Shown piece after piece: positions 6,939-31,722 of a stretch of 64,000 bases of DNA. Position numbers and translations under genes: made by a program. The notes below the pieces were generated by a model. The model was given only the letters and a program-made list of their open reading frames with translations. It was not told where the DNA came from and ran no database searches. The DNA is taken from positions 39,295 through 103,294 of IMG/VR virus record IMGVR_UViG_3300004457_000028; one strand, given 5' to 3'. This stretch comes from a virus. The stretch's first letter is position 1. Every line of letters starts with the position of its first letter.

Positions 6939-6950
6939 CTTCTCTTATTA

Positions 6951-7706: not shown

Positions 7707-7876
7707 CAAGCCACCACCCAGTTGCGAGTATAGCACCACGATATGTTCAGTGGGTTGAGTGCATCAGTGAGGTAGTTGAGTTGCTCATCCAACTCCTCTT
7801 CAGTGGGGAACTCCCATGAGACTGTAGGCTCACCCAGTTGTGCGCCGAAGTTAATGACTGCTTCAAGCCTCCACAT
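7706..7876 (-). CDS. Small hypothetical protein, 56 aa (not in track)
   Basis: MWRLEAVINFGAQLGEP...; TGATG overlaps on both sides. Confidence 0.6.
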   Translation of the reverse strand: MWRLEAVINFGAQLGEPTVSWEFPTEEELDEQLNYLTDALNPLNISWCYTRNWVVA

Positions 7877-8226
7877 CAAGCATCAACTCCTTCATCACCA
7901 TCGTTGAACTCATACATGAGCAAGTCAGCAGGTGAGTCCCAAGGAGCACGAATCTGTATGACCTTGGCCTCATCAACCATAGCCACAGGCTCAGGCTGAG
8001 GTGAGGATGTGTAAGCCCACTCAGGGACATCAGGTTCAATCGGTGTCATGCTTGGGGGAATGATAGGCTGCAAGTCAGGGTAGACAGAAGCACACTCAAG
8101 TGAACAGACCAAGTGGGCTGTCATCTCCACGGTGTCTACCACATCAACACCATCACTGATGTCTATACCACAGGAGGCACAGTGGTGGTCATAGTCAGGC
8201 TGCAAGTTCATGGTGTCGGTTTCCAT
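7876..8226 (-). CDS. Zn-finger (CxxC...CxxxC) acidic protein
   Basis: CASC...CSLEC; start moved to ATG 8226 because the track start lies inside the promoter. Confidence 0.6.
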   Translation of the reverse strand: METDTMNLQPDYDHHCASCGIDISDGVDVVDTVEMTAHLVCSLECASVYPDLQPIIPPSMTPIEPDVPEWAYTSSPQPEPVAMVDEAKVIQIRAPWDSPADLLMYEFNDGDEGVDA

Positions 8227-8241
8227 GTTGATGCTCTTTAA

Positions 8242-8260
8242 TGCTGCTTCATATATCAAT
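8242..8260 (-). promoter_or_regulatory. Early promoter motif, copy 5 (2 mismatches)
   Basis: ATTGATATATGAAGCAGCA. Confidence 0.7.
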
Positions 8261-8334
8261 GAAGTTCAGTTCACCGATTAGTTCTCAGCAATACCGCACG
8301 CTGATGTCACGCAGTAGAGTTAGTAAGCACTGGC

Positions 8335-8655
8335 TTACTCAAGCCCACAGAACTTGCACGATTCTGTATGCGCTTCGTTGAATTGTATGTCATTGTTCTT
8401 GACATAGGAGTGCATGTATGTTCCTTCATCCCACAATCCATTAGCAGCGCAGCCACACTTACAGAAGTGTATGAGTAAACCTTCAATGTATTCGTAGTCC
8501 ATCTGTGAGTTCCACAAGACCGAGAGCATAGCCTCTGCTAACTCACCCTCTTGTTCGTTTGCATACGCTGCTACAATATCGTAAGCCTCACCCTTGTCCA
8601 TCAGTTCTATCTTTACAGGCTCGTAGTCATCGGGTTTACCATCATCGTCTACCAT
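8335..8655 (-). CDS. Hypothetical acidic Cys-containing protein
   Basis: ORF track; CKCGC...CKFC. Confidence 0.55.
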   Translation of the reverse strand: MVDDDGKPDDYEPVKIELMDKGEAYDIVAAYANEQEGELAEAMLSVLWNSQMDYEYIEGLLIHFCKCGCAANGLWDEGTYMHSYVKNNDIQFNEAHTESCKFCGLE

Positions 8656-8731
8656 ATCTACCCATCTACATACGAGACTTAAACCTACTGAGTGTTCTTC
8701 GCAGTCATGCGTTTAGGATAGCGTGCTCGTG

Positions 8732-8838
8732 AACCAGTCCAACTTGTCCGACTAATCCGATGTCTTGTTTAGACTATGTATTGTATGATATTGTATTGTA
8801 TATTGTCTTGATAATACAACGGACTACTTAGACAACAC
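8732..8838. repeat. Quasi-palindromic ~100-bp element, copy A (9-bp TTGTCC-type repeats inverted around an AT-rich core)
   Basis: Aligns with 17680-17776. Confidence 0.65.
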
Positions 8839-8959
8839 TCTACCCTTTCGCTACCGCATCTACACGATAGATGTCTATGCAAACTATGCGTTCTATGCGT
8901 ATACTATAGGGGCGTGCTGAAAAGCATGGCTGAATCAGGGCATCCGAATGACAGGCGAG

Positions 8960-9165
8960 GGGTATATATCAAGCAGCACTGGTGCTGGCTCTCGCTCGGA
9001 GTGAAGGTGATTTATTTTCAACGAGCGAGGTCACTCGTGGGGTTATCCCCAACCGTATGGATGGAAGATGGAACGAACAGGGGCAACGCATCCCCCGCCG
9101 AAGGCGGGGAAGGACTGCGCTTAGCAGTCCCTGCGAAGCAGTCGCTCCGCTGGCGTGCGTAACAA
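8960..9165 (+). ncRNA. Candidate structured ncRNA or DNA hairpin cluster behind a + strand promoter-like copy
   Basis: 15/19 match to the early promoter at 8960-8978, followed by five short hairpins. Confidence 0.4.
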
Positions 9166-9169
9166 GGCC

Positions 9170-9218
9170 AAAAAGCCAAAAAAAAAGCCCCCCACGCCGC
9201 CGAAGCGGTGTGAGGGGC
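9170..9218 (-). terminator. Hairpin plus U-tract terminator
   Basis: 14-position stem (one mismatch, one wobble) with C-UUCG-G loop, then U9 and U5, downstream of gene 9275-10111. Confidence 0.75.
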
Positions 9219-9274
9219 GGCTACCCAGTGAGTGAGTCACTGGTGGGGGTGCGCTGAGTGGCTCAGTGGCCTAC

Positions 9275-10111
9275 TCAGAGGTTCGCAAGCACTGCGATGG
9301 TTGCCTCAAGGCGAGACATGTTCATCTTCTGTGCCTTGGTCTTGGTCATGCCGAGAGCGACTGCTTGCTTCACGAGGTCGGCCTTGCTGACCTTCGCAGG
9401 TGTGGACTTGACCGCTGCAACTGGTGCAGGTGCAACTGGTGCAGGTCGGAGTGCAGCAGCAGCATCACGGCCATCCTGTGCAGTTGGTGCATCAGTTGCA
9501 CCTTGACGGACAAAGGCAAGAGCGCTGTCCTTGAGAGCACCCTTGTTGGCTCGTGTGCTCCAGTCAGCACCAACGGTCAGTTGCAGGTAAGCGGAAACAG
9601 CCTTGCGACGAGACACAAGAGGGCGAGGTTGCCCTGCAAGTTCGTGGGTGTCGGCATAGACAACGCCATCAGCGAACCAGTTCGTGCCAGCAGCGACAGC
9701 AGCGTTCAAGCGAGTTGCCTTGCGAGCAATCTTGAGTTCACGGCGGTAAGCGTTGAGCGTCTTGATGACGATGTGCTTGCTCACCTTGTCGTGGGTGGAC
9801 TTGGCCTCAAAGAACTTGGCGAGGGCAACCTTGCCCATGCTGGATGGCTCAGGCATGTCCTTGCAGTCCTTGCGAGCAGCGGCAAGGTCAAGCACATCAA
9901 CGGCGAAAGCGGTGACTTGAGCACGAGTGTAGGTCAGCGGTGTTGGGCTGAGGTTCATGCCGTCAGCGAGAACGAACATGCAGGTGAAGTCCTTCGTGGA
10001 CTTGCCCCGTAGGTAGGTGGCGATGAGTGGCACAACGGCGGTTGCTTGCTCACCCCAAGTAGCAGTGGCGGTCACAGGTCGGGCTGGGGTCGGGTTCATG
10101 TTGTTAGACAT
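9275..10111 (-). CDS. Basic Ala/Lys-rich protein, possible HeH/Rho-N-like nucleic-acid-binding repeats
   Basis: Own promoter, RBS and terminator; C-terminal SKADLVKQAVALGMTKTKAQKMNMSRL. Confidence 0.7.
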   Translation of the reverse strand: MSNNMNPTPARPVTATATWGEQATAVVPLIATYLRGKSTKDFTCMFVLADGMNLSPTPLTYTRAQVTAFAVDVLDLAAARKDCKDMPEPSSMGKVALAKFFEAKSTHDKVSKHIVIKTLNAYRRELKIARKATRLNAAVAAGTNWFADGVVYADTHELAGQPRPLVSRRKAVSAYLQLTVGADWSTRANKGALKDSALAFVRQGATDAPTAQDGRDAAAALRPAPVAPAPVAAVKSTPAKVSKADLVKQAVALGMTKTKAQKMNMSRLEATIAVLANL

Positions 10112-10140
10112 CTTTCTCTCTCCTTCACGGTGTAGTATAA

Positions 10141-10159
10141 TGCCGCTTTATATATCAAC
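10141..10159 (-). promoter_or_regulatory. Early promoter motif, copy 6 (1 mismatch)
   Basis: GTTGATATATAAAGCGGCA. Confidence 0.8.
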
Positions 10160-10715
10160 TCCAAGCAGTGATGCGTTCTTGCCACTTGTTACGGGGCGTA
10201 TGCTACGGCGCAAGGAGGGTGGCTTAGTTGCCACCCATACGGGTGGGGGTCAAGGGGCGTGGCTTGAGGCTTAACGCTGGACTGAGAGGCGAAGCGTTAC
10301 GCTGCCCTACGAATCGGCAGGTGGCGTAACCTAAACGCTGCACTGAGCAGCATAAGGCTTAGCAGTGTAGCGGTCTATAGAAGTTGAAGCCTGAAGCCCC
10401 TACTCGTGGTGCGTGATGCAAGCCCTGCTCGCAGCGCCACGCTGCTACGCAGCGTTGTGCTGCTCCCTTGTTACGGCAAGGCTACTCAGCCGAGCGCCAC
10501 GCTTGCGAGGCCAGCAGCAAACAGCGCCGCAGTGCCTTGTTACGCCCCTTAGTTACGCCCCCCTTAGGCGGAGGCATAGTAGTTACGCCCTGTAGTTACG
10601 CTTCTTTGGTCACACGCAGAGTTCCAGCAAAAAAAAATTGAAAATAAAAATTGACCTCGCCGTAGTCCTTTGATTTTCCGCATAATTCATAGAGTAGTTA
10701 CGCATCAGATGGGAT
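10160..10715. repeat. GC-rich non-coding strand-switch region with GTTACG repeats; candidate origin or packaging/terminus site
   Basis: GTTACG at 10188, 10296, 10325(rc), 10470, 10539, 10552, 10582, 10595, 10697; A-tract ~10629-10637. Confidence 0.55.
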
Positions 10716-13964: not shown

Positions 13965-15152
13965 ATGCCGAGTGAGAACTATGACTTTGTGCCGTGGGAT
14001 TCTCCCGACGACATTGAGAAGTTTGTTCCGGCTCTTTTAGCGGGAGCAAGAGCGTTAGCACCAAAAATAGCAGGTAAACTTGGTGGTATGAAAACAGCAA
14101 CTGGTGGTTTTTTACAAGGCGCAAAAAAGAAAATAGGCGATGTCGCCAGTAAAGTTGGTATCAAAGGTGGTGGCGCAGCAACAATTGCTACTGAGGGTGC
14201 GGCCAGTGCTACTAAAACAGCGGCCAGTGCTGCGAATGAAGCAGTAGCGTCTGCTGCCCCTAAACCTGACTTGGGAACAAAGATGCCAACTGCTGAGGTT
14301 TCTACTCCTGAACCACCTGCTGCTGAACCAGCAGTTGAAACTCCTGAACCTACAGAACCAAGTGGGAGTGCTGGTAAGAAGAACGATTACAAAAAAGTCG
14401 GTATGCAATTGGCTCAACAAATGCAAGCAGGTGCTGCTCAAAGAAAACAAGCGCAAGAGCAAAGGGCGGCTGATATGGCTCGCCGTGGTGCATCAGTGCA
14501 AACTGGTGAGGCGATGGATATTGCTTGGCGGTTGTTGAAGCGTGATTTGTCCGAGATGACAGATTATGAAATAGACCGAGCAAGGTTCGCTAATGATAAT
14601 CCGGAACTTCAAAGTGAAGAAAGAACAAGGGCTATGGACAGAATGGCAGAGTTTGCTCGTCAAAATGTCACACCGTTTGATTACGGAGATGAAGTTGAAG
14701 AAGCGTATGACGATATAGGCGACCAAGACCATTCGGATTATTTCGGTGAAGACATAGACTCTAATGAGTTGTATCAGTATATTTTAGAAAATGCAGGTCA
14801 AGAAGCGGCGCAAAACTATGTTCAACAATACAAAGACGCTCGTGCAAAGTATGGAGGTAATGCCGCAACTATGGGTCAGTTGGATAACTACGGAATAAGT
14901 AACCAAGGTGATGCAAACGACTTCATAGAAAGTCGTGAAAGAATGACAGGTGACATGCGTAACATCATGCCGAATGACGAAACTGTATTTGACGCTTATC
15001 CTTATCCCGAAGGAGTAGTGTATAACAATAAGTTGTCACCTCCGTTTACCACCACTCCTGAAAACGAATCTAATTTTCAAATGAAATATACAGGCGAACC
15101 AATGGACATCGCCTATCAGTTGTTGAAAAACTGGGAGGGGACTACACAATGA
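13965..15152 (+). CDS. Tagged modular protein with amphipathic Ala/Gly N-terminal region
   Basis: IEK-FVPALLAGARALAPKIAGK; GEAMDIAWRLLK; GEPMDIAYQLLK. Confidence 0.75.
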   Translation: MPSENYDFVPWDSPDDIEKFVPALLAGARALAPKIAGKLGGMKTATGGFLQGAKKKIGDVASKVGIKGGGAATIATEGAASATKTAASAANEAVASAAPKPDLGTKMPTAEVSTPEPPAAEPAVETPEPTEPSGSAGKKNDYKKVGMQLAQQMQAGAAQRKQAQEQRAADMARRGASVQTGEAMDIAWRLLKRDLSEMTDYEIDRARFANDNPELQSEERTRAMDRMAEFARQNVTPFDYGDEVEEAYDDIGDQDHSDYFGEDIDSNELYQYILENAGQEAAQNYVQQYKDARAKYGGNAATMGQLDNYGISNQGDANDFIESRERMTGDMRNIMPNDETVFDAYPYPEGVVYNNKLSPPFTTTPENESNFQMKYTGEPMDIAYQLLKNWEGTTQ

Positions 15153-17681: not shown

Positions 17682-17776
17682 CTTGTCTAACTTGTCCGAT
17701 GTATTGTTTACACAATATACTGTATTTACTATTCTTCTAAATGTATAGACTATACAACGGACAACAAGGACAACAC
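17680..17776. repeat. Quasi-palindromic ~100-bp element, copy B
   Basis: aacttgtctaacttgtccgatgt ... atacaacggacaacaaggacaacac. Confidence 0.65.
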
Positions 17777-17790: not shown

Positions 17791-18408
17791 ATGATGACCC
17801 CCGCAGTGGACAGACCAGTGGACATTATGGATAATCAAGACCATCACGATGCAGAAATACGCCTCATGGGACTAATTTTGGCTCAAAGCACACTGGTTGG
17901 AGTAGCGGTTGGAATCTTTGACGCAAGGGTTTGGCTAACACAAGACAGTGTTTGGATAAATGGTTTCACTTATGCGATGGGTGCATTCTTTGTTCAAGGT
18001 ATAGCATACTACTTCTTTAAGATGTTCTTTGAGCAAAACCTACAAGAAAAGGTAAGACATGGTAACATGGAAAAGCAAAGGAATAATCAATACAGGAGTA
18101 TGCAAACTCAATTTGATAATCGTAGAGCCGACATGGAAATGCGTATGCAAGAAGCACAACTTGAGCGTGAATTACGCTGGATGGAAAATAACCCCGGTAA
18201 GATGCCGCCAAGTTGGGGTGTTCAGGGTGGTGCTCAATCTATGGTAGGTTTTTACGACCAACAAGGTGGGGCTGCTGCTTCTTTTGACGGTAGTAGGATT
18301 CCTACTCATGAGGCTAAGATTTTACAACCACTTACTCTTGGAGTAGAAGAAGACATACCATTGAAGAAAGATGGCACGCCTGATAAAAGATTTGAAAAGA
18401 AATCTTGA
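17791..18408 (+). CDS. Membrane protein (2 predicted TM helices plus coiled coil)
   Basis: Two hydrophobic stretches, then a Q/E/R/M-rich helix. Confidence 0.75.
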   Translation: MMTPAVDRPVDIMDNQDHHDAEIRLMGLILAQSTLVGVAVGIFDARVWLTQDSVWINGFTYAMGAFFVQGIAYYFFKMFFEQNLQEKVRHGNMEKQRNNQYRSMQTQFDNRRADMEMRMQEAQLERELRWMENNPGKMPPSWGVQGGAQSMVGFYDQQGGAAASFDGSRIPTHEAKILQPLTLGVEEDIPLKKDGTPDKRFEKKS

Positions 18409-18421
18409 GTGAGGTTTACTC

Positions 18422-18679
18422 ATGGGCCGAATCTTTCGCACTCCTTCTGATGATGCTACTGAAAGCACGCTGCGTGCTATTCACATAGCAAATACCGTTG
18501 ATAATGCATACGAAAGAACTTGGGGTTGGGTAAAGACTATCCTTGCCTCCGGTATTACATGTGTAGTAGTAAGTGGTATTGAGTTTTACAATCCTGAGTT
18601 CAGTATATACGAAAATACAGTAGACTGGGCCGTTGAAAAACTTGAAGACTTAATCAATTGGTTAAAGTGGTGGGATTGA
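18422..18679 (+). CDS. Small single-TM protein
   Basis: WGWVKTILASGITCVVVSGI; GAGG RBS. Confidence 0.7.
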   Translation: MGRIFRTPSDDATESTLRAIHIANTVDNAYERTWGWVKTILASGITCVVVSGIEFYNPEFSIYENTVDWAVEKLEDLINWLKWWD

Positions 18680-18682
18680 TTC

Positions 18683-19405
18683 ATGGTAGACCCCGGTGGC
18701 ACTGCATTGGTAGGTGCAGCGATGTGGGGTCAGCATATTTACAATTCATATAAACCAAGAAGAGTCGGTATCTACGGAGCACCTCTCGTTGGTAAAACAA
18801 CTCTTGACCGCTATCTTACTACTCCGGGTGAAATGGAAGAGATAGAAGAAGAAGATAGAACTACTCATAGTCGTATACTGAAATTAGGTAATTACAGAAT
18901 GCCTAAACCAACAAGAAAAAGAATTGGTTGGAATGGTGAGAAGAGAGTCGTATATTCATCAGACATAGGTGGACAAGAGAGGTTTTGGAATCTTTGGATT
19001 GAAGACATGGTAACTCGTGGAGTAGAAGCCGTAGTTTACATTTTTGACGATAGGGCTTTCAAAGGTGGAGATGAAAGCATAAAACAAATTGCTGGTTTTC
19101 GTTATCTTGTAGATTGTTTAATACAAAGAAATTATCGCTATCGTTCAGTATGGGCGAGATTCAAAGGTAGAAAGTATCACCCAAGAGTGGTTATGCTTGT
19201 AGCGAATAAAGCAGATAGATTCTTTGATGAAACCGCATCTAAACTTTGGCATGAGGGTCGTATAGGTGAACATAAGATTTTTGACCCATTTAGAGATGAC
19301 TTAATCAGGCTACAAAAAGCAGGTATTCCTACTCGTAGGTCATTCATGGCTACAAGGATTGGATGGAATGTAGAAAAGACAATGGTGAGCCTTTTAACAT
19401 CTTGA
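18683..19405 (+). CDS. Small GTPase, Ras superfamily (Arf/Rab-like)
   Basis: G1 GAPLVGKTT, G3 DIGGQERF, G4 NKAD. Confidence 0.85.
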   Translation: MVDPGGTALVGAAMWGQHIYNSYKPRRVGIYGAPLVGKTTLDRYLTTPGEMEEIEEEDRTTHSRILKLGNYRMPKPTRKRIGWNGEKRVVYSSDIGGQERFWNLWIEDMVTRGVEAVVYIFDDRAFKGGDESIKQIAGFRYLVDCLIQRNYRYRSVWARFKGRKYHPRVVMLVANKADRFFDETASKLWHEGRIGEHKIFDPFRDDLIRLQKAGIPTRRSFMATRIGWNVEKTMVSLLTS

Positions 19406-19460
19406 CCAAAAAAGTGACCCCATAGGTAGCCTTTTGAATAACAACTCTTTCGGTGTAAAT

Positions 19461-19658
19461 ATGTCAAGCAAGAAATCGTCTACTACTTTGGTGTCCACTG
19501 GTGGTGGGAGTCGTAGCCTAAGAACAACTGTTCCTATGTTTATTGTAGAACATTTTGGTCTTACTGCTGGAGATGATGTTAATTGGAGATTTACTGTTCA
19601 AGAGGGACAGATTGTAGTAGTCATGACACCTACGGCTGAGCAGGTCGTGGTAGAATGA
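19461..19658 (+). CDS. AbrB/SpoVT/MazE-type DNA-binding protein
   Basis: SLRTTVPMFIVEHFGLTAGDDVNW; start moved to ATG 19461. Confidence 0.75.
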   Translation: MSSKKSSTTLVSTGGGSRSLRTTVPMFIVEHFGLTAGDDVNWRFTVQEGQIVVVMTPTAEQVVVE

Positions 19659-20590
19659 TGATGTTTAACAGACAACCCCAACAAAATCTAAATGAGGCTC
19701 AATTGTCTACTTTGGCTATGCAAGGTAATGAACAACTTACTCAGGCTGCACTTCAAGAAATGTTGATGGCTCAACAAGGAATGCAAGAAGCAGCACAGGC
19801 TGGTAACATAGAAGTTCCTAAAGTTAATTTTTACCCAAGTCGCCATGCTGACCCACGAAAGGCTCGTAAAAAAGACATCAAGCAAGCATACAAATTACTT
19901 CAACCAGCAAAGCGTTCTATATTCAATCCTATGAGATGGGTATTTGGTCGTAAGTATCGTTACAACAAAGATACAGGAACTTGCGTTGTAGACGGAGCAA
20001 ATGTTGCTGAATTGATGAAACATGATAATCTCTATATGCGTATCTGTGACGATGAAACAGGTCGCTCTCTTTGGGAAATGTATTGGCAAAACCCAGTTAC
20101 TGGTCAGCCTGAAGCGTTTATTGCTCTTGACAAAGTGACCAGTGGTAAGAAAATGCGAGGGACATACTGCCCTGAACATCTTCATTTGTATCATCTACTC
20201 TGTAAATGGGAGGCCGAAGAAGACAAACAGAATGAAATGAACCCAAGTCGTCTCCGTGATAAAGTGAAAAGAGGAGTCTCAATTGTTACTGTCCCTGTAT
20301 CTTCTGTAAAAAAGAAAGACCCTACACCTGCTATGCTAACAAAATACGAACCGTTCTTTGCTGAACTTGAAAGAGATGCTGGTAGAACAAAGGGAATCAA
20401 TCTAATCCATTATGCTAACCCAGCCACTGGTCAAAACGATATTACCATGGTTGTATTTGACCTTCGTATATTTCAATTAGAACTTCAACAAATGAACATG
20501 CCAACGCAAGCGTTTCAAGAATTACTTAATGTTGAGAATACCAAAATGCAACAGAACCTTGATGGTGCAGTAGCGGTTGGGGAGGCATGA
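19655..20590 (+). CDS. Hypothetical protein, Gln/Met-rich N-terminus
   Basis: ORF track; ATGA coupling. Confidence 0.75.
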   Translation: MMMFNRQPQQNLNEAQLSTLAMQGNEQLTQAALQEMLMAQQGMQEAAQAGNIEVPKVNFYPSRHADPRKARKKDIKQAYKLLQPAKRSIFNPMRWVFGRKYRYNKDTGTCVVDGANVAELMKHDNLYMRICDDETGRSLWEMYWQNPVTGQPEAFIALDKVTSGKKMRGTYCPEHLHLYHLLCKWEAEEDKQNEMNPSRLRDKVKRGVSIVTVPVSSVKKKDPTPAMLTKYEPFFAELERDAGRTKGINLIHYANPATGQNDITMVVFDLRIFQLELQQMNMPTQAFQELLNVENTKMQQNLDGAVAVGEA

Positions 20591-20594
20591 TACG

Positions 20595-21266
20595 ATGTTC
20601 AATCTTGGCGCACAACAACAACAACCAAACGGATTAAATCTCTCAGCAACTGGGGGAGGAATGGGTTACGGTATGCAGCAACCGCAAAGCGGATTTAGTC
20701 TTGGAGCACAACCGATGCAACAACAAATGCAGCAGCAGAATCAAGGATTTATGGCTGGTATGATGGGTAGTGCGGGGATGACACCTCAGCAACAAATGAT
20801 GATGCAGAACGGACAAGTCACTCCTCCATCAGAAATGGAACTTATGAATGCTCTATTACAATCTCAAAATCCTATTCATCGTTTTATCAAAGACGGAGGG
20901 CTTGGTAGTTTGATAGATTTGATTGCAGCGACAACCAGCCTAAGTATGCTAAACATTCTTAAAAACGCCACATTCGTTATTGATGAAGACGAGGGTGGTA
21001 TGAAACTTGACCCTGCAACATTATCTTCTGACTTACAAACCCTAAGCATTGAAAATGTGAGTATGGTCTTGAATAACATGGTTGCTCAAAGCAATCAAAA
21101 GTTCCAAGAGGCTGAAATGCAAAGACAACAGATTATTGCTATGTCTCAACAATCAATGATGGGTGGGGCGTTAAGTGCTGCTTTACAAGATGAAGGTATG
21201 ATGAACAAAATGGGCGGCGGAATTGGTAGCGTTGCTCGTGGGCTTATAGGACTACCAAGAAACTGA
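20595..21266 (+). CDS. Gln/Met/Gly-rich protein
   Basis: GGAGG RBS before ATG 20595; low-complexity N-terminus. Confidence 0.75.
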   Translation: MFNLGAQQQQPNGLNLSATGGGMGYGMQQPQSGFSLGAQPMQQQMQQQNQGFMAGMMGSAGMTPQQQMMMQNGQVTPPSEMELMNALLQSQNPIHRFIKDGGLGSLIDLIAATTSLSMLNILKNATFVIDEDEGGMKLDPATLSSDLQTLSIENVSMVLNNMVAQSNQKFQEAEMQRQQIIAMSQQSMMGGALSAALQDEGMMNKMGGGIGSVARGLIGLPRN

Positions 21267-21275
21267 GGCGATATA

Positions 21276-21527
21276 ATGGTGCAATCGGGTAGTATGAAAG
21301 ATTACGGAATGAGAGTAAGTGAAGCGAGTAGTAGTATTTTTGCTCCAAGTAGAAACATCATTACTGAAATGATTATGGTTCAGTTTATTGCAGTAATTAT
21401 GGCTTGCACAGGTATTCTAATTTTCAAAGGTGACGAAATGAGCAGCGGGGATGTAAGCGTCTTTGTTGTAGGTATTTTTGGAGCGTTTATTTTCTTAACC
21501 ACTCTTTACTCAAGAATCACTCGCTGA
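21276..21527 (+). CDS. Small 2-TM membrane protein
   Basis: Two hydrophobic helices, basic C-terminus. Confidence 0.7.
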   Translation: MVQSGSMKDYGMRVSEASSSIFAPSRNIITEMIMVQFIAVIMACTGILIFKGDEMSSGDVSVFVVGIFGAFIFLTTLYSRITR

Positions 21528-21770
21528 CCACTTGTTTATCGGGCATGAAACTGATGGCGCAAGAGCCTTAATTTTCATGACGCAACTACACAGTCGGCAA
21601 GTCCCCATTCTTTTTTGCATGTAAGGACATTGATAACACTCATCAAGTCTCGCCATGTATAGTTTTTTAGAGACTCTGTTGCCTTTCAGTGCATCTTTTG
21701 ATGCTTTGATTAAATCTTTACCACGCTCTTTGAGAGGTTGCTTTGGAACTCTCTCGTAAGGTGGGAGCAT
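21510..21770 (-). CDS. Cys-rich protein (R..C..C...C..CxC...K...CP..KW type)
   Basis: RLDECYQC...CRLCSCVMKIK...CPINKW; GGAGG RBS. Confidence 0.7.
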   Translation of the reverse strand: MLPPYERVPKQPLKERGKDLIKASKDALKGNRVSKKLYMARLDECYQCPYMQKRMGTCRLCSCVMKIKALAPSVSCPINKWSASDS

Positions 21771-21829: not shown

Positions 21830-22513
21830 ATGGCGGAGGGTAACCCAGTATCAAAACGGTCTTGCCCTTTGTGTCAGCACCCAAGTCGTGAAGACTTAGA
21901 GAAGGGACTCCTTGATGGTGAAATCTCTTCTAAACAATTAGACAAAGACATGGGCTGGAGGCTGAACACAACAGACCGTCATTTTCGTAATCACATGGGT
22001 CAGTTCCACATGGCTTCTAATCCTCAGTGCAAAGTTTGTGCTGATGTAGGTAGGGCTGATTTTGAGCGTCGTTATTTTGAAGATGGCTCTCAGTCAGAAA
22101 CAATTGCTGAAGAACTTGGTATTGCTGAGTCATCTGTTTATCATCACATGAAACATCACTTTCAACCGTTAGTTCAAAGAAGTGCGGCTGCTGAGATTAC
22201 ATTAGTCGTAGGAGAAGAGGTTAATGCGCTCAGGTCAAATGTTGAACTCCTCAATGTTAAATTGTCTGAATTGCTCAATGAGGGTAGTGTCCATGAAGAT
22301 GGGTTTGTTAGAGATGCGGTGTCACTGCACAAAGAAGTCAGAGAATCAATAAAGGACTTGTTAAAGATGAACGAACAGTGGAGTCCTACATCTGAAAACA
22401 GTCAAGTCAATAATACAATTAACATCCTCAAGGTTGAACTTGGTAAAGAAAGCCCTGACTCTTGGGCGAGGATTCGTAACTCTTTGTTAGAACATGCGGG
22501 TGACATAAATTGA
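21830..22513 (+). CDS. Tandem Zn-finger/HTH protein, candidate terminase small subunit
   Basis: Two CxxC...HTH...HxxxH repeats, helical hairpin, C-terminal NNTINILKV strand. Confidence 0.55.
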   Translation: MAEGNPVSKRSCPLCQHPSREDLEKGLLDGEISSKQLDKDMGWRLNTTDRHFRNHMGQFHMASNPQCKVCADVGRADFERRYFEDGSQSETIAEELGIAESSVYHHMKHHFQPLVQRSAAAEITLVVGEEVNALRSNVELLNVKLSELLNEGSVHEDGFVRDAVSLHKEVRESIKDLLKMNEQWSPTSENSQVNNTINILKVELGKESPDSWARIRNSLLEHAGDIN

Positions 22514-22911: not shown

Positions 22912-24416
22912 CGGGTGGTATGATGGGGCGAACCTCCGACACGAGGATATACAATCCTCGCTCCGAGTCCTCTGAAATGTTCAGGGCTAATCATGAAGAT
23001 GAAAGGCCACCAAGCGGTATGGAGGATGGCCGAGACAAAGAAGCACGCAAAGATAAGCGTCAAGCCAAGAAAGAGGCTGAGGAAAAAGAGGATAAAAAAA
23101 TCCGTCACATCAAAGTCCGTTCACATCACCTTGGCCTTGACAGTGAAAAATCTATTGAGGATAAAGACGAGGTAGATGAAGAAGAAGAGAAGTTCAAACC
23201 TCGTGGTTCAGTTGATAACCCATCTGACCAAACTATGCCAAGCGGCACTGGTGGATTCATGACGAGCCTCGCTATGGGTGCTAAAGGGCCGGGTGCTGCT
23301 CGTGGTGAAATGATTCAGATGTCTGAGCCTATGCAAATGGCTAATCAGTTGTTGAAAGAAGTTACTCCTTACAACGAGTCGCCATTTCCTCATGGAGTTG
23401 CACCTTTAGAGGATGTTTCATGTCCTCATTGTGGGGATAAACTTGAAGGAACATATAGAGAACTTCATACTAACGACCCATTGGTTGAACTCTATTGTAG
23501 GACTTGTGATATTTACGATGATTCTTCTGTGGATAATTATAGTAGTAGTTCACTAAAGTTAAATCCACCAATTATCCAAAAAGGTGAACCAATGGACATC
23601 GCTTGGCAACTATTGAAATCAAAAAAAACGACTGCTAAACGCAGAAAAGAAGAAGGGTATTCAAAGTGGCGACCATCTACAGGACAATTTGAACGCCCAA
23701 AAGGAGGCGGTGACCCTCGTAACGCCACATCAAGGCGTGCAAAGAACATCAGTCGTAATCTCCCGTTAGGTAGAAAGACTGGACTCATGAGGCCGCATCT
23801 TTCAGTTGAGTTTTCTCACCGAGGTCTTGCGAGTAAACAACCAATGAGTAAAGACCCACAAAAATACGGTGCTTATCTTGCATCTCAAGAGGCTCGTAAA
23901 CTACAAGGTGGTGTAAGAAGCACTACGACACCACACATGAGACACAGCCAACGCTCATTCATATCAGGTCAAACTGGTGGTGGTCGTTTGACAAACACTC
24001 TACAATACCCTCGTGTCCCAAGACCACGACTACACGCAGTTCGTGCTCCAAGTATTCAACCACCTAAAATGAAGATGCCCCACTTAGCACGACCTAAGAT
24101 GCCGGGTATGGTGACAATGAGTGAAGATATTCCTCAACACAGTGATATTCTCAAAGCAGGTAATGCATATCAAGCAGCATTGATGCGAATTGCTCTCAAA
24201 GAGATTCGTGAATTGATGCGTGAAAAGAAAGACAAGGATAAGAAAACAAAGGGAAAGGGGAATCCTGATGTTGCTGGTGCTGCGAGTAGTCTACCAAATT
24301 ACGAAGCAAATAATCCTAAGACAGCAACTCGCCCCGAAGGTGGCACTGAAGATGAAAACGACTCACGCCTTTGGGGATTAGCCCCCGGCGATATTGCGGG
24401 GAGTGGGCGGATTTGA
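22908..24416 (+). CDS. Tagged modular basic protein with Zn-ribbon insert
   Basis: SEPMQMANQLLK-[CPHC..CRTC]-GEPMDIAWQLLK. Confidence 0.75.
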   Translation: MTGGMMGRTSDTRIYNPRSESSEMFRANHEDERPPSGMEDGRDKEARKDKRQAKKEAEEKEDKKIRHIKVRSHHLGLDSEKSIEDKDEVDEEEEKFKPRGSVDNPSDQTMPSGTGGFMTSLAMGAKGPGAARGEMIQMSEPMQMANQLLKEVTPYNESPFPHGVAPLEDVSCPHCGDKLEGTYRELHTNDPLVELYCRTCDIYDDSSVDNYSSSSLKLNPPIIQKGEPMDIAWQLLKSKKTTAKRRKEEGYSKWRPSTGQFERPKGGGDPRNATSRRAKNISRNLPLGRKTGLMRPHLSVEFSHRGLASKQPMSKDPQKYGAYLASQEARKLQGGVRSTTTPHMRHSQRSFISGQTGGGRLTNTLQYPRVPRPRLHAVRAPSIQPPKMKMPHLARPKMPGMVTMSEDIPQHSDILKAGNAYQAALMRIALKEIRELMREKKDKDKKTKGKGNPDVAGAASSLPNYEANNPKTATRPEGGTEDENDSRLWGLAPGDIAGSGRI

Positions 24417-26752: not shown

Positions 26753-27948
26753 TGGGTCAAGTCTATGTTATCCGTAAAGAGGCTGGTGTAGCGTTATCGC
26801 CCGGTGGTATTCAGCAAATATGGATGCCGGGTCAATCAAACGAACCTCAACGATTCGCTGGTGTTACTGGTGGTATCGGTAACTTACAACGACACCCAGT
26901 AACTAATCAATACGAAGCAGCACCAATTATGAGTGAACCTGATGATAAAGGTAGACAGACCGAACTCGGTCATCGTGCAGGTGACATATACGGCGCAAGA
27001 GGTCTAAACATTAACCCAAAGTTCAATCAAAATCTCTCTTTTGGCCCAGTAACTGCTGAACAAGCACCTATACACGAGGCTCAACAAAGAGTGTTTGACC
27101 GAAGTGCAAGGTATGGTCAAACAGGTGCTAATGTCGGGAGAGGACTTGCTGCTGGTATTGGTGTTTTAGCAGGTGCTGTGAATCTCGCAAACGCTGGTGC
27201 TCAAGGTCAAGATGCTATTACTGGTGGATTAGGTGCTGCTCAAATGGGTAGTATGGCTTACCAACAAGGTAAGAAACCATTAGCCGAAGCAGGGGGTGAA
27301 GTTGGAGCACAAGTTGGTGCTCGTAGTGTTGGTGTAACTAAACCTGAAGTTGCTTCACCGAACCCAGTTGCTGTAGCACCTCCTACTAACACTCATACTG
27401 AAGATGAAATGACAAACATGCGGTCAGGAAAAGAAGTCACAATGTCTACAGACAGGCATGGGAATCCAGTTCCGTTTACCAGCGAGGCCGCACGAAGAGG
27501 TGCTAAGCATAGAAGTGACCTAAACATAGGTAGGAATGTAGACCCCGATACAAACCAGTCACCAGTAGACCACATGGGTATGCCTACGGCAGTAGGAGTT
27601 GAAGAGACAGGTATGGTAACTGGTGGTGGTGACCAATCTACATGGCCGACTGGTTCTCAACAAGGGGATGAACAAGCACAAGCAGCGGCTAATAAAGTTC
27701 AAGTCGCTCCAGCAACTACCAACACTTCTCAACAAACAGTGTCGCAAAGCGCCGCTGCAATCGCTGCTGAAACTGGTCAAGGACAGTTACCCGGAGCACC
27801 CGACCCCAATGCTAATTCCGCTGCGGCTGATGTGATTGCTGCAAACACAACTGCTGCTGAGGCTATGAGTGGTAAAAAGCCCAGTTCAACAGACCATTCT
27901 ATAGTCAATCAATCTTTCAATCCTATGCGATTCATCGGGGTGATTTGA
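26752..27948 (+). CDS. Putative ejection/internal protein with Gly-zipper helix
   Basis: MGQVYVIRKE; GRGLAAGIGVLAGAVNLANAG. Confidence 0.65.
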   Translation: MGQVYVIRKEAGVALSPGGIQQIWMPGQSNEPQRFAGVTGGIGNLQRHPVTNQYEAAPIMSEPDDKGRQTELGHRAGDIYGARGLNINPKFNQNLSFGPVTAEQAPIHEAQQRVFDRSARYGQTGANVGRGLAAGIGVLAGAVNLANAGAQGQDAITGGLGAAQMGSMAYQQGKKPLAEAGGEVGAQVGARSVGVTKPEVASPNPVAVAPPTNTHTEDEMTNMRSGKEVTMSTDRHGNPVPFTSEAARRGAKHRSDLNIGRNVDPDTNQSPVDHMGMPTAVGVEETGMVTGGGDQSTWPTGSQQGDEQAQAAANKVQVAPATTNTSQQTVSQSAAAIAAETGQGQLPGAPDPNANSAAADVIAANTTAAEAMSGKKPSSTDHSIVNQSFNPMRFIGVI

Positions 27949-29432
27949 TGGCTAAGCGTGAAGATGAAGCACAGATGAAAGAACTCATCGTTGAAATGGA
28001 CACGAAGATGTCCAAGCGCTCTTTCAAGTATTTCTTTGAAACAGTGTTGGGTTTTGATTACGCAGGGCATCACGAATCTTGGAATGTAGGATTAGAAGAT
28101 AACCGCTACTACTGTGTTAAAGCAAGTCGTGACCACGGTAAGTCTGTTTTCTTTATGTCCTACGCTCTTTGGTTAGCGGCTTTCAAACCAAATACACACA
28201 TTATGATTTTCTCTCACTCTCTTGAACAAACGCTGGAACACATGCGTTTTATTCGTAACAACATAGACGGTGCTGCTTGTCTACAACATCTCAAACCCGG
28301 TGGTATACCTTGGCGTAAAACCTACTTTGAGTTCACTAACGGTAGCCGTATCATGGCTAAGTCTGTCGGTGGAGCAACTCGTGGTTTCCACCCTGATGTT
28401 GTTGTATGTGATGACATTTTATCAGGAACAACTGGTAGTGAACTTCAGCGTGCAGCCGATTGGTTCTATGGTGTTCTTCTACCTGTTCTCCACCACGAAG
28501 GAAAACTCATGATGGTGGGGACTCCGTTTAGTTACAACGATTTGTATGCTGAGTTAGAGAGAAAAGAAACATTTCAAGTGGAGACATATCCCGCTATCAA
28601 CAAAGAAGGTAAACCTCTTTGGCCTGACCGTTGGAGTTTAGAGGCTTTGAACGACAGACGATTATCTATGCCAGCAATTCAATTTACTCGTGAGTATCTT
28701 TGTGAACCAATCCACGATGTTGCGAGTATGTTCCCGATGACTATTCTTGAGAAGGCTCGTGACAGAGAACTCGTGCTTCTTGACCATGCTGAAAACGAAT
28801 ACGACGATAACGGAGACTCTACTGGAATCTTCGGACATCACTTCATTGGATGGGACACTGCAATTGCGTCAGATAAGAATGCTGACTTTACTGCTATGAC
28901 TGTTCTACGACAACCACCCGATGATAATGTAAAACAAATTGTTGGGGTCGTGCATGAGCGTGGAATGAGTTCTGTTGCACAGAAAAGACAAATTATTCTT
29001 TTGAATCAAAGATTTCAACCTGACTTAATTGAACTTGAAGGTAACAACTTTCAGCGTATGTTTGCTATGGAGTTGAATGAAATGCGTGAAGATATTCCCA
29101 TTAGAACATTCATGACAACTCGCACAAGAAAGGAAAGTATCTTCATGTCTTTACTCATGGCTTTTGAACAGGGGCATATCAAAACACCTTATGGTAACGA
29201 ACAGAGTAGGATATTTACTCACAAGTTAGAAGAGGAGTTGAACAGATTTGGTATGCAGAAAAACGGGAGACTGGAAAGCGTGGGTGTGCATGATGACTTG
29301 GCTATGTCTCTTGCTTTGGCTAACTGGGCTACGAAAGAGTTCAGAGGTTCTATCGTCATGCTTGACGACATTCTCCCCGGCCTTGATAACATTATCACAG
29401 GCAAAGGAAACGGCGGGTGGATGATACCATGA
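27945..29432 (+). CDS. terL: Terminase large subunit
   Basis: Walker A ASRDHGKS, Walker B VVVCDD, coupling VGTP, nuclease IGWDTA...HDDLAMSLALA. Confidence 0.95.
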   Translation: MMAKREDEAQMKELIVEMDTKMSKRSFKYFFETVLGFDYAGHHESWNVGLEDNRYYCVKASRDHGKSVFFMSYALWLAAFKPNTHIMIFSHSLEQTLEHMRFIRNNIDGAACLQHLKPGGIPWRKTYFEFTNGSRIMAKSVGGATRGFHPDVVVCDDILSGTTGSELQRAADWFYGVLLPVLHHEGKLMMVGTPFSYNDLYAELERKETFQVETYPAINKEGKPLWPDRWSLEALNDRRLSMPAIQFTREYLCEPIHDVASMFPMTILEKARDRELVLLDHAENEYDDNGDSTGIFGHHFIGWDTAIASDKNADFTAMTVLRQPPDDNVKQIVGVVHERGMSSVAQKRQIILLNQRFQPDLIELEGNNFQRMFAMELNEMREDIPIRTFMTTRTRKESIFMSLLMAFEQGHIKTPYGNEQSRIFTHKLEEELNRFGMQKNGRLESVGVHDDLAMSLALANWATKEFRGSIVMLDDILPGLDNIITGKGNGGWMIP

Positions 29433-30489: not shown

Positions 30490-31722
30490 ATGTGGGGGTC
30501 AGCATTGATAGAAGACGATTTTGGAGAAGTTCATTCTGTTACCCCTGTTTCCGATGGAGAAGTTCAATCAATTAAAAAGCAACATCATTTTGCTCCAAAC
30601 GGAGATGGTTGGTTTGAAGCGTCTCTTGGTTGTAACGCTGAAACTCTTGTAAAACGCTTGAGAAAAGCACGAAGAAACAATAAAGACAATCGTGAAGAAA
30701 TTGACAGTTTTATCAAAGATGTTAGGAAAATTAAATCTCTTGAAACAGATATGACAATCAAAGCCTTGTCATGGGGAGAGCCTTATGATAATACTATGAA
30801 GCAACTCGGACTCAATGACCGCAAACTCAAGAGTTTGCGTAAGTTTGGTGAATCCCGCAGCGTAAATCTTGAGAGAGCATGTATGCTATGGGATAAGGCC
30901 GAACAGACGCTAAAAATGCTTGACGAGCATGAGGATGTTTGGGGTGTTGAAGAGCAACAAGCGTGGGCTATGGCTATGGGTGACCGAAGTTCGGCTCGTA
31001 AGATGTGGTCAAATGCTTTACATCCAATTGAAAAACTCACAAAGGCGGAACTGTCTTTCTTAGAGTATGCTGCAAAAGAACTCTTAGAAAAAGGCCCAAT
31101 GAAAGTGACTACAATACGCAGTAATTTTTCTGATGCTGGTCTATTAAGAAAATCTCAAACAGATAGAAAACTTACAACTCTTATGAATATGTATGGCGAA
31201 GACATGGATATTGTCAAAGGGGCAGTGAGAGGAACTTATGTTCGTATTTCAAGTGACGGCTTGGTGTTGAAAGATGTGTGGTCTTACAGCGCTGGCTTCA
31301 TTGACGCTGATGGTTACATTACTATTACAGAGCGTGGTGAACCTCGTGCTGGTATGATTGCTACTGGGGACAGAGGTAAAGTTCACTGTGAAGATTTGTT
31401 CAAAACGCTGGAATGCGGTGTGTTGTCTACAGATAATAAAGTCTACAAAGACACCCAAAGAAGCCAACATCGTTTACAATTTTACTCTAAGGCTGATTTA
31501 CGAAAGTTACTTGGAGGGGTGTCACCTCACCTGAAAATGAAGTCTGTTCAAGCAAAGGCAGTTTTGGCTTTCATTGATGAGAAAGATAAAACTCGTAAGC
31601 AAGAACTTAAGCGCTTAGTGCGATACGAGAATTGGAAAGATGACAAAAGAAAATCTCGTGCTTTGTTAGATGGTTGGGGAATTGATATGGACACTATTGG
31701 AAAATACAGGGAGGGGCTATGA
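30490..31722 (+). CDS. Protein with C-terminal LAGLIDADG endonuclease-like domain
   Basis: YSAGFIDADGYITI...LLGGVSPHLKMK. Confidence 0.8.
   Translation: MWGSALIEDDFGEVHSVTPVSDGEVQSIKKQHHFAPNGDGWFEASLGCNAETLVKRLRKARRNNKDNREEIDSFIKDVRKIKSLETDMTIKALSWGEPYDNTMKQLGLNDRKLKSLRKFGESRSVNLERACMLWDKAEQTLKMLDEHEDVWGVEEQQAWAMAMGDRSSARKMWSNALHPIEKLTKAELSFLEYAAKELLEKGPMKVTTIRSNFSDAGLLRKSQTDRKLTTLMNMYGEDMDIVKGAVRGTYVRISSDGLVLKDVWSYSAGFIDADGYITITERGEPRAGMIATGDRGKVHCEDLFKTLECGVLSTDNKVYKDTQRSQHRLQFYSKADLRKLLGGVSPHLKMKSVQAKAVLAFIDEKDKTRKQELKRLVRYENWKDDKRKSRALLDGWGIDMDTIGKYREGL

Follow-up and report, generated by a model that had tools for sequence, protein, structure and literature searches.

We identified, in a magrovirus-type genome, a compact cassette of genes for membrane proteins and soluble orphans that surround a divergent small GTPase of the Ras superfamily. 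The conserved core of the cassette is five genes (A, B, the GTPase gene, E and F), usually accompanied by a sixth gene, G. The cassette is undescribed in the literature searched. It is a candidate route by which magroviruses may act on, or exit through, the host membrane; our best guess, possible rather than probable, is a late-acting, membrane-bound GTPase switch that would serve egress or membrane remodelling.

The window (the whole 64,000-nt stretch analysed here) is the right-hand 64 kb of a magrovirus-type record of 103,294 bp. The genome, ∼95% complete and of a tailed, archaeal type, encodes PolB as well as TerL, portal, S78 protease, HK97-type major capsid protein (MCP) and tail tube; the last five bear out the tailed archaeal virus of the preliminary description. 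The nearest MCP relatives are Druskaviridae haloviruses (32–33% identity). An HMG-CoA-lyase-like gene adjoins TerL, as in the ICTV description of magroviruses (PMC10768690), and at the sequence level the genome fits that description. Magroviruses, which abound in the ocean, have been assigned to Marine Group II archaea; the presumed host phylum is Thermoplasmatota.

Seven ORFs, all on the + strand, were found where the preliminary description had placed them. They are close-packed (intergenic gaps of 13, 3, 28, −4, −14 and 9 nt) and co-oriented with packaging, head and tail genes. Gene order is retained across 164 loci, and the core order A, B, GTPase, E, F is constant over four lineages, down to ∼31% GTPase identity; it is also retained in the lineages P0145 and P0128. 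In the P0145 lineage the five cassette genes are located elsewhere in the genome, directly after the MCP gene and three small head-region genes; since the five genes were relocated together, the cassette travels as a unit. It is inherited vertically, and dN/dS values of 0.05–0.09 across its genes indicate strong purifying selection. Synteny had been proposed earlier as a check: the block is syntenic in many relatives, and an objection from lack of synteny fails. The operon of seven genes described earlier stands for A, B, GTPase, E, F and usually G, but D is an accessory insertion.

The GTPase (240 aa; 18683..19405, + strand; dN/dS 0.054) has intact G1 (GAPLVGKT), G3 (DIGGQ(98)ERFWNLW, with Trp at Q+7) and G4 (NKAD) motifs. 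All 203 distinct family members have G1 and G4; Dx[GP]G is present in 197 of the 203 and the Trp in 196 of these 197. Insertions of ∼20 aa occur in switch I and ahead of β5. The catalytic residue of switch II varies (Q, E, D, H) even among close relatives, which is odd for a canonical timer GTPase. The AF2 model (pLDDT 82.9, pTM 0.82) shows a confident small-GTPase fold with an N-terminal helix (residues 4–23) ahead of β1. Structure comparison (VIA) matched the model to Arf6 (Z 16.9, rmsd 2.6 Å over 162 residues), Sar1 (Z 16.9), SR-β (Z 16.2) and mimivirus Rab (Z 14.5); Foldseek returned at least 500 small-GTPase matches. Motifs, family conservation and fold thus agree with the GTPase reported earlier, and so does its short hydrophobic helix. 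The latter is moderately hydrophobic and weakly amphipathic (<H> 0.39, µH 0.21); because of the low hydrophobic moment it does not qualify as an amphipathic helix of the classical Arf kind.

The preliminary description called the protein ‘Arf/Rab-like’, a label that stands for Ras-superfamily membership only. Two features, its switch II (DxGGQ...W) and the top PDB profile match, point to Arf/Sar. This match, the best real one of the family profile, is Asgard GerdArfR1 (E 1.9e-6, residues 14–122) and takes in the N-terminal helix of the viral protein; hhalign of the viral family against Asgard Arf proteins gave a probability of 98.2%. In matched profile controls the viral family scored 94 against Asgard Arf and 88 against Ras/Rab, with Arf against Ras at 194. 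The Pfam Arf model had no match to the window GTPase at E ≤ 0.1, and its best E-value among 30 family members was 7.8e-4; eight of the 30 weakly matched the SRPRB model. In the maximum likelihood (ML) tree the viral family, itself monophyletic (100/100) on a very long stem, is not nested in the Arf clade. Neither this tree with AU tests nor the profile controls separated Arf from Ras/Rab affinity; thus, Arf-specific membership is not established.

Three of the neighbours are membrane proteins, and their TM features are conserved among orthologs. Protein A (205 aa; 17791..18408, + strand; dN/dS 0.079), described earlier as a 2-TM coiled-coil protein, has one strong TM segment at 23–45, but the second hydrophobic stretch is weaker; the chain then continues with a charged, coiled-coil-like stretch and ends in a tail rich in G and Q. 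It was detected at the same position in 139 of 164 loci, with at least one TM in 114 of 116 orthologs, and was recovered in the P0128 lineage by HMM (E 3e-21). An analogous TM protein precedes the GTPase by two genes in 67/67 P0145-lineage loci. Protein B (85 aa; 18422..18679, + strand; dN/dS 0.090), whose stop codon lies 3 nt upstream of the GTPase start, has one weaker hydrophobic segment and, at the C-terminus, a helix that is acidic and rich in Trp. It was detected in 142/164 loci; its single TM, as reported earlier, is supported by at least one TM in 98 of 108 orthologs, and the P0145-lineage analogue has a TM in 55 of 67 loci. Protein G (83 aa; 21276..21527, + strand; dN/dS 0.092) has two TM segments (27–53 and 55–81), as first described, and a short basic tail. 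It was detected in 130/164 loci (at least two TMs in 101 of 102 orthologs) and in the P0128 lineage (HMM E 6e-9); the HMM search did not detect it in the P0145 lineage.

The Gln/Met-rich character noted earlier for E and F was confirmed by composition of the N-termini. Protein E (311 aa; 19655..20590, + strand; dN/dS 0.071) is a soluble orphan with a variable, Q/M/A-rich N-terminus (49% Q/M/A/N in the first 50 aa). Alignment of orthologs revealed core invariants R71, C110 and C172-P-x-H175-x-H177-x-x-H180, whose Cys and His residues are a candidate metal site. The E model has pLDDT of 78 overall and >90 in the core; structure and sequence searches found no fold or sequence match. E was detected in all 164 loci, in 77 of 83 P0145-lineage loci by HMM and in the P0128 lineage (HMM E 7e-48). 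Orphan protein F (229 aa; 20577..21266, + strand; dN/dS 0.065) has a low-complexity N-terminus, in which an LNL(G/S) motif occurs and Q/M/G/N account for 50% of the first 80 aa; it further contains PPS(E), which is invariant, a helical domain and, at the C-terminus, the conserved motif ...VGGGIGSFxRxhhxGGR. No match was found in PDB or the atlas. It was detected in 146/164 loci, and a Q/M/G/N-rich protein occupies its position in 65 of 67 P0145-lineage loci.

Protein D (74 aa; 19434..19658, + strand; dN/dS 0.088), the AbrB-type regulator of the preliminary description, is SpoVT/AbrB (MazE)-like, but its PF04014 match is sub-threshold (E 2.4e-4; 21.4 bits, where the cut-off is 24.7). D is accessory to the cassette because it was detected in only 70 of 164 loci; in other lineages the gap between the GTPase and E genes is too short to hold it. 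Downstream of the cassette, gene I (21830..22513, + strand) encodes a DNA-binding protein of the HTH type (227 aa) that contains a coiled coil and two invariant CxxC pairs. It was detected in 160/164 loci, with weak HTH matches in Pfam and a GerE-type HTH in PDB and PHROG profiles; identity as a small terminase is not established. In the P0145 lineage I does not adjoin the cassette; we treat it as a conserved neighbour of the cassette.

Upstream of A, an intergenic inverted repeat (17683..17776) has arms ...CTTGTCTAACTTGTCCG / CGGACAACAAGGACAAC that flank an AT-rich core of ∼60 nt. The pattern TTGTCCG-N59-CGGACAA is unique in the window, with 0.02 occurrences expected by chance. By a regular-expression test the repeat is present upstream of A in 14 of 134 relatives, the closest ones only, versus 0.5% of control windows. 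The repeat described earlier as the cassette's own regulatory element is thus real and improbable by chance, but it is dispersed: a second, co-oriented copy lies at about 8737–8845. It is a candidate promoter or operator at the cassette start.

The GTPase would act as a guanine-nucleotide switch, because NKxD specifies guanine and the P-loop and DxGG are intact. The remaining steps (membrane, partners and output) are drawn from anatomy and genomic context. In one nucleotide state the GTPase may sit on the host cytoplasmic membrane via its N-terminal helix and/or A and B, by analogy with the N-terminal helix or anchor of Sar1, Arf and SR-β and with recruitment of Sar1 by Sec12. There it could recruit or release the soluble partners E and F; since these have no recognisable fold or family, no feature of theirs links them to membranes. 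Most likely, the output would be a timed alteration of the host membrane at a late stage to allow virion release, either by holin-like small TM proteins that disrupt the membrane or by vesiculation and weakening of the envelope. We infer late expression from gene orientation and position alone. With 205 aa, A exceeds the usual length of a holin, and Pfam and PHROG profiles gave no holin family match among the large ORFs of the window. The machinery by which archaeal tailed viruses exit is uncharacterised (PMC10791045); in Haloferax, the Arf-like GTPase ArvA drives vesiculation (PMC10927574).

The same membrane features of A, B and G would also suit remodelling without lysis in the manner of ArvA, a reading that we regard as unlikely. 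The cassette would then produce vesicles (for decoy or superinfection exclusion) or a membrane-attached platform for genome replication, packaging or virion assembly. EV production requires euryarchaeal ArvA/OapA and rises when this protein is overexpressed (PMC10927574); the Q/M-rich low-complexity regions and conserved terminal peptides of E and F are such as scaffold- or coat-like adaptors might have. However, the partners ArvB (DUF2073) and ArvC (DUF2072) are absent and the neighbours lack a Pfam match (for E and F, none to ArvB or ArvC at E ≤ 0.1), phmmer links the viral family to no cellular GTPase (none reached among 1.84 billion proteins) and assembly of tailed viruses is not known to depend on a membrane.

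Position among structural genes suits an assembly role equally well. The cassette is always embedded in the cluster of packaging and structural genes and shares its strand, and in the P0145 lineage it directly follows MCP and the three head-region genes. The GTPase could thus be an assembly or maturation chaperone, or a checkpoint for head, tail or packaging, with the small TM-like proteins as minor structural or tape-measure-associated components. We consider such a morphogenesis factor quite unlikely: three conserved true-TM proteins are hard to place in a membrane-less tailed virion, no cassette protein matched a PHROG structural family and, as the preliminary description observed, the cassette proteins share no cargo peptide tag (here the repeat family D5 alone was seen). 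To our knowledge, no Ras-like GTPase belongs to a tailed-virus morphogenesis module, which also counts against this role.

Host takeover or defence at the membrane (secretion, SRP-type targeting, cell division or membrane-associated defence) is very unlikely. SR-β is among the top structural matches, the weak SRPRB matches in eight family members agree with it, D is MazE/AbrB-like in one lineage, and the Met-rich segments might loosely recall signal-peptide-binding domains. Against these points, SR-β matches no better than Arf or Sar1, D is accessory, the cassette sits among late, not early, genes and its proteins have no similarity to known anti-defence proteins (a comparison that left PADLOC out).

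A recent host origin of the GTPase, as a captured auxiliary gene among unrelated neighbours, is almost certainly wrong, even though the JGI automatic pipeline annotated some family members as ‘GTPase SAR1 family protein’ and one GTPase-bearing contig was binned in an Asgard MAG rich in Arf-like genes. An exhaustive phmmer search of the 1.84 billion proteins matched only the family's own closed set of 76 cluster representatives. The sole ‘cellular’ matches were three short contigs binned to unrelated taxa, one with a complete cassette; none of the 41 Arf-model hits of the Asgard MAG had the 235-aa open frame of the viral-type gene, and the window GTPase is itself below the reach of the Arf model. 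The stem of the viral family measures 1.9 substitutions per site. Between two lineages MCP identity is 39% and GTPase identity ∼31%, so the GTPase appears to diverge roughly in step with the capsid protein; it is present on all three MCP-selected contigs that reach the expected position. Recent isolated capture, which the preliminary description had raised against itself, is therefore already contradicted at the sequence level by the closed viral family, its long stem, co-divergence with MCP and fixed synteny over four lineages.

Like holin lysis cassettes of tailed bacteriophages, the magrovirus cassette lies in the late region, close to packaging and head genes, and groups several small proteins that have one or two TM segments and a charged tail. 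Unlike them, it has no endolysin or spanin (profile searches of the large ORFs of the window found neither, and with a wall-less host neither would be expected), and a GTPase with two soluble orphans within the unit occurs in no known lysis cassette.

With the Arf family (GerdArfR1, PDB 8OUN/8OUM; Arl8; Sar1) the viral GTPase has in common the fold, switch II DxGG(Q/H) with Trp at +7, and a helix ahead of β1 aligning with the GerdArfR1 helix and P-loop; its best PDB profile matches are Arf-family proteins. However, identity is just 15–18%, the viral protein has the ∼20-aa insertions (switch I, pre-β5) and a variable catalytic residue, and its N-terminal helix is hydrophobic, not amphipathic. 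ArvA/OapA (HVO_3014) is likewise a small stand-alone euryarchaeal Arf-like GTPase that acts at the membrane, has a hydrophobic helix at its N-terminus and shares its operon with genes for small partner proteins (PMC10927574); here the likeness is by description, not sequence. In Pfam, ArvA falls under MMR_HSR1 and Arf is its remote best match, a situation similar to that of the viral protein, but the viral neighbours have no DUF2073 or DUF2072 signal. Thermoplasmatota are never named in the main text of the ArvA paper (PMC10927574). Giant eukaryotic viruses also encode Ras-superfamily GTPases; their Ras, Rab and Ran (mimivirus Rab, PDB 5XC5) are the only viral structural neighbours among the matches listed. 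The giant-virus genes can be recognised as recent captures from eukaryotic Rab, Ras and Ran, whereas the magrovirus family is old and closed, belongs to a tailed virus of prokaryotes and comes with its own cassette.

All seven ORFs of the preliminary description are present on the plus strand at window positions 17791-21527. In gene order they are A (205-aa transmembrane protein), B (85-aa transmembrane protein), the GTPase (240 aa, 18683-19405), D (74 aa), E (311 aa), F (229 aa) and G (83 aa, two transmembrane segments). The genes are close-packed, with gaps of 13, 3, 28, -4, -14 and 9 nt. The intact G1, G3 and G4 motifs ascribed to the GTPase were likewise found, and they hold across 203 distinct members of its family. 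The G1 Walker A motif GxxxxGK[ST] (GAPLVGKT, residues 32-39) and the G4 motif [NT]KxD (NKAD, residues 175-178), the guanine specificity motif, are kept in 203 of 203 members, and Dx[GP]G of G3 (DIGGQ, residues 94-98) in 197; among these 197, all except one have Trp at Q+7 in switch II. Residues G32, G37, K38, D94, G97, D122, R124, N175 and K176 are kept in alignments of 15 and of 30 members. K79 is nearly invariant across the family; T77, the candidate for the G2 threonine of switch I, stands at the very start of predicted β2 and is the majority residue, with S, H or R in some members.

Single-sequence searches with the GTPase gave weak Pfam matches (Roc, E 0.023; MMR_HSR1, E 0.058) and a PDB match to Arl8 (E 0.09) covering switch II only. 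The AlphaFold2 model built with an alignment (pLDDT 82.9, pTM 0.82) matched at least 500 small-GTPase chains (Rab, Ras, Rho) in Foldseek. In VIA, a search independent of Foldseek, Arf6 came out on top (Z 16.9, rmsd 2.6 Å over 162 residues), and next were Sar1 (Z 16.9), SR-beta (Z 16.2) and a RagA-like protein of Asgard origin (Z 15.8); Rab and Ras scored lower, near 13-14.5. Because the family-wide motifs, the model and both structural searches agree, the 240-aa protein is a genuine Ras-superfamily G domain. This switch protein is specific for guanine and has a hydrophobic N-terminal helix, predicted at residues 4-23 (pLDDT 53-64; <H> 0.39, with muH 0.21 making it weakly amphipathic). Two insertions of ~20 residues each are located in switch I and before β5.

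The catalytic residue of switch II (position of Ras Q61) is variable: Q predominates (142 of the 197 members), ahead of E (37), D (12), H (5) and A (1); the window's GTPase has Q98. Even GTPases that share ~80% identity can differ in this residue, with DxGG and Trp on either side of it unchanged (examples are loci L020, L054 and L064 and the divergent P0145 lineage). Catalysis could be completed in trans, the chemistry could tolerate the change or hydrolysis could be slow.

The protein was compared with the Arf/Sar type trait by trait. Switch II of Arf1 is DVGGQDKIRPLW, and the Arf/Arl/Sar signature is DxGGQ/H followed by a conserved Trp; switch II of the window's GTPase, DIGGQERFWNLW, has the Arf/Sar form DxGG(Q/H)...W and aligns with those of Arl8 and the Asgard protein GerdArfR1. 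The amphipathic N-terminal helix of Arf docks on the core and is released upon GTP binding; the predicted N-terminal helix of the viral GTPase, weakly amphipathic, aligns with the GerdArfR1 helix. The Arf interswitch toggle is a two-residue register shift of β2-β3, and a β2-β3 hairpin is predicted in the viral protein (77-83 and 86-92, in a single static model). The best real PDB match of the viral-family profile was GerdArfR1 (E 1.9e-6; residues 14-122, from the N-terminal helix to β4), an Asgard Arf deposited as PDB 8OUN (bioRxiv 10.1101/2024.02.28.582541). Arl8 at ~1e-4 and Rab33 at 1e-3 came next; top matches to RecA were dismissed as due to the repeated P-loop in a concatemer chain.

Family-level comparisons did not single out Arf. 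The window's GTPase had no match to Pfam Arf (PF00025) at E <= 0.1; 15 of 30 viral members match it at E <= 1 (best 7.8e-4), with Roc, MMR_HSR1 and SRPRB similarly weak. Over the same 30 members the Pfam tally comprises Roc, MMR_HSR1, Arf, EF-Tu, SRPRB and Ras, none better than E 5e-5. The JGI automatic annotation calls some members 'GTPase SAR1 family protein'. We compared profiles with hhalign, using as controls the small GTPases of one Asgard MAG, labelled via Pfam. The viral family matched Asgard Arf with a probability of 98.2% (E 6e-14, score 94) and Asgard Ras/Rab with 97.9% (E 4e-13, score 88); the two Asgard profiles matched each other with 99.9% (E 2e-31, score 194).

The maximum-likelihood tree (LG+C20) unites the viral GTPases in a single clade (100/100) whose stem measures 1.9 substitutions per site. 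With references drawn from one Asgard MAG plus three G domains of bacteria, the latter a small and long-branched outgroup, this clade falls on the side of Asgard Arf, Rag and Ras and away from the bacterial outgroup (96/83 support). The viral family, Arf+Rag and Ras/Rab form an unresolved trichotomy: the best tree has Viral+Ras at 69/51, the AU test gives p 0.37 for Viral+Arf/Rag, and neither grouping is rejected. Of the earlier label 'Arf/Rab-like', the Ras-superfamily part is thus upheld by fold, motifs and tree, while the Arf-specific part finds no backing in the Pfam searches, the nearly equal hhalign scores or the trichotomy. We read the viral GTPase as an old lineage of its own within the Ras superfamily that shows some Arf/Sar-like traits; it is not an established member of the Arf family.

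The GTPase family is a closed one. An exhaustive phmmer search over 1.84 billion representatives returned only 76 clusters, many of them fragments; searching by word index gave 473 close relatives, carried by marine contigs that reach ~107 kb, and the homologues come from marine (Tara) samples. Among 185,579 species genomes (GTDB) just three short contigs of 8-16 kb match the GTPase, one of them carrying the full cassette. The bins that contain them are Parvibaculum, Maricaulis and an Asgard ('Promethearchaeati') MAG (L166, L167 and L168), and the three are likely mis-binned viral contigs, i.e. binning contamination of public genomes; as short contigs from unrelated taxa, these bins were rejected as host evidence. 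Between two lineages the capsid proteins are 39% identical and the GTPases ~31% identical, as expected from long vertical descent. When five large contigs were picked by capsid alone, all three that reach the expected position carried the GTPase; in the other two this position falls beyond the contig end. A recent, isolated capture of the GTPase from a host, an origin weighed in the preliminary description, was rejected, the family being closed and co-diverging with the capsid; host capture is exceedingly improbable.

The synteny of the cassette, which the preliminary description had proposed to check, is kept. We compared 164 IMG/VR loci with GTPases sharing 33-90% identity with that of the window, detecting neighbours by tblastn, and found these in the same order as in the window. 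E was detected in all 164 loci, F in 146, B in 142, A in 139, G in 130 and D in 70, many of the misses being contig ends. The 227-aa HTH gene I that follows the cassette (21830-22513, plus strand) was found in 160 of 164; its identity as a small terminase was not established. A Cys-rich 86-aa gene (DUF6171/phrog_13558) on the minus strand at 21510-21770 overlaps the 3' end of G by 18 nt and is present in 113 of the 164 loci. Median dN/dS is 0.05-0.09 for every cassette gene.

The arrangement extends to more divergent lineages. The P0145 lineage comprises ~140 contigs with GTPases 29-32% identical to the window's. By HMM, E lies directly downstream of the GTPase in 77 of 83 loci; the other neighbours have mostly lost their similarity in sequence, with the architecture kept. 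A transmembrane protein is found two genes upstream of the GTPase in 67/67 loci and immediately upstream in 55/67, and a Q/M/G/N-rich protein is second downstream in 65/67. Here the cassette lies right after the capsid gene, not before the HTH gene I; the five-gene unit has been relocated, and the five genes therefore move together. In a fourth lineage (P0128 type) the order is A, B, one inserted gene, GTPase, E, F and G. The insert is a 260-aa gene with a poly-Asp/Glu tail (L367:5217-5999, also in L358 and L363). The most divergent members (P0155 and P0164) were not placed on contigs and stand outside the synteny comparison, and the GTPase family alignment is too variable for pattern-based locus finding. 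The constant companions of the GTPase are small membrane proteins, two or three in number, and a pair of soluble orphans.

Both orphans lie downstream of the GTPase. E contains one invariant Cys together with a C-P-x-H-x-H-x-x-H motif, and its core was modelled with pLDDT above 90. The structure had no PDB fold match (best VIA Z 4.4; none in Foldseek at E <= 1e-3), and the sequence had no PDB match, no longer or fused relatives and no atlas match. An ArfGAP-like zinc finger was considered for E and rejected, there being no structural match. Neither E nor the GTPase had a tblastn match in an annotated phage collection that includes haloviruses and lacks the exemplar magrovirus ON649702. F, a Q/M-rich protein, has conserved LNL(G/S), PPSE and C-terminal Gly-rich motifs, with neither a PDB sequence match nor an atlas match. 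D was earlier called an AbrB-type regulator; it does match PF04014 (SpoVT/AbrB, MazE; E 2.4e-4), but at 21.4 bits against a cut-off of 24.7 the match is sub-threshold, and the gene is confined to one lineage. PHROGs and NCBIfam yielded nothing useful for the seven cassette proteins.

Beyond the cassette the window encodes standard tailed-virus parts: large terminase (27945-29432), adjoined by an HMG-CoA-lyase-like gene, portal (31719-33500), S78 prohead protease (40644-42002), HK97-type major capsid protein (42045-43214) and tail tube (47368-49596). An ORF at 50755-52071 holds four tandem 111-nt units (51055-51498) that make a 37-aa protein repeat (family D1). A single ORF of >3,545 aa (53364-63998) extends past the window end and presumably encodes a giant tail or fibre protein. 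Replication and morphogenesis gene clusters are on opposite strands. On the strand opposite the structural genes, an ArdC-N plus zincin metallopeptidase protein (3226-4188, minus) adjoins an 864-aa SNF2-family helicase (4344-6938, minus).

The only named relatives of the capsid protein are those of HVTV-1, HCTV-1 and HCTV-5 (32-33% identity) and of viruses of methanogens; HVTV-1, HCTV-1 and HCTV-5 are ~102-kb haloarchaeal siphoviruses. The virus fits the published description of magroviruses (PMC10768690) because of its genome size, PolB, lyase gene, Druskaviridae-like capsid, opposite-strand replication and morphogenesis clusters and marine (Tara) homologues. Magroviruses form the order Magrovirales, for which Marine Group II archaea (Poseidoniales) are the assigned hosts (PMC10768690); we infer the same host here, taking it over from that literature.

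The inverted repeat upstream of the cassette, earlier taken for the cassette's own regulatory element, is real; it is not private to the cassette, the window having at least two copies in the same orientation, and the second (8737-8845) is intergenic between divergent gene clusters. A sigma-70 promoter scan (16 sites versus 14.3 expected) was set aside as not informative because the virus is archaeal. Other repeats were noted. Six copies of a 35-40-nt motif ending ...GCTGCTTTATATATCAAC (families D2 and D3; 1106-10172), beside minus-strand replication-side genes, have the look of a recurring promoter that includes a TATA-like box. A 31-nt motif AAAAAAAATATGGAGATGA...ATGGCA (family D6; 42020-42050, 43227-43257 and 44025-44055) stands ahead of the capsid gene and of each of the two genes after it and may be a strong translation-initiation or late-promoter element. 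A 37-nt coding repeat (family D5; reference copy GEPMDIAYQLLK at 15092-15128) occurs in four copies (14504-15128 and 23321-23618) inside otherwise unrelated proteins.

The cassette lies in the late cluster, and its genes are under strong selection. We tentatively propose that the GTPase would cycle on the host membrane, via its N-terminal helix and/or via A and B, and would control E and F, the outcome being a late membrane event serving virion release; on the present analysis we hold this to be possible, somewhat short of probable. A role in release is plausible because the egress of archaeal tailed viruses is described as completely uncharacterised (PMC10791045), because Haloferax has an Arf-like GTPase, ArvA, that drives vesiculation (PMC10927574) and because Arf GTPases are present on a putative Asgard mobile element (PMC11529989). 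A more specific version, with the cassette as the release machine of archaeal tailed viruses, in which the GTPase would time or localise membrane disruption by holin-like proteins together with two new-fold proteins, is doubtful. Equally doubtful is that the cassette serves non-lytic vesiculation, in the manner of ArvA, or builds a membrane platform. A morphogenesis factor is a little less likely again; in its favour, the cassette follows the capsid gene in the P0145 lineage, and against it, small membrane proteins accompany the GTPase throughout. Host takeover or defence, set beside the late position, is improbable.

If the release-machine version is true, it would amount to GTPase-gated lysis without a bacteriophage counterpart, in a virus group very abundant in the surface ocean: magroviruses are reported to rank third in abundance among marine virus groups, after SAR11 phages and cyanophages (PMC5434244). 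The cassette is a concrete, cloneable candidate for archaeal tailed-virus egress, or at least for a virus-driven membrane process. Among the magrovirus and archaeal-virus papers that we consulted, none mentions a comparable GTPase encoded by a virus. The family also shows that a lineage of prokaryotic viruses took up Ras-superfamily switches carrying a membrane-type N-terminal helix in the distant past, a finding relevant to how Arf/Sar-type membrane GTPases developed in archaea.

Two known systems invite comparison. Directly downstream of ArvA, its operon encodes the partners ArvB (DUF2073) and ArvC (DUF2072 zinc ribbon) (PMC10927574). The viral D, E, F and G, in contrast, have no ArvB or ArvC Pfam match at E <= 0.1; where ArvC has a zinc ribbon, E has its Cys/His motif in an unmatched fold. 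Phage holins are small proteins that have one or more transmembrane segments, end in a charged and hydrophilic C-terminus and are encoded among clustered late lysis genes. No holin family was matched by the cassette proteins, and no lytic enzyme adjoins them; A, B and G have conserved transmembrane segments, and A has a region with 35% charged residues.
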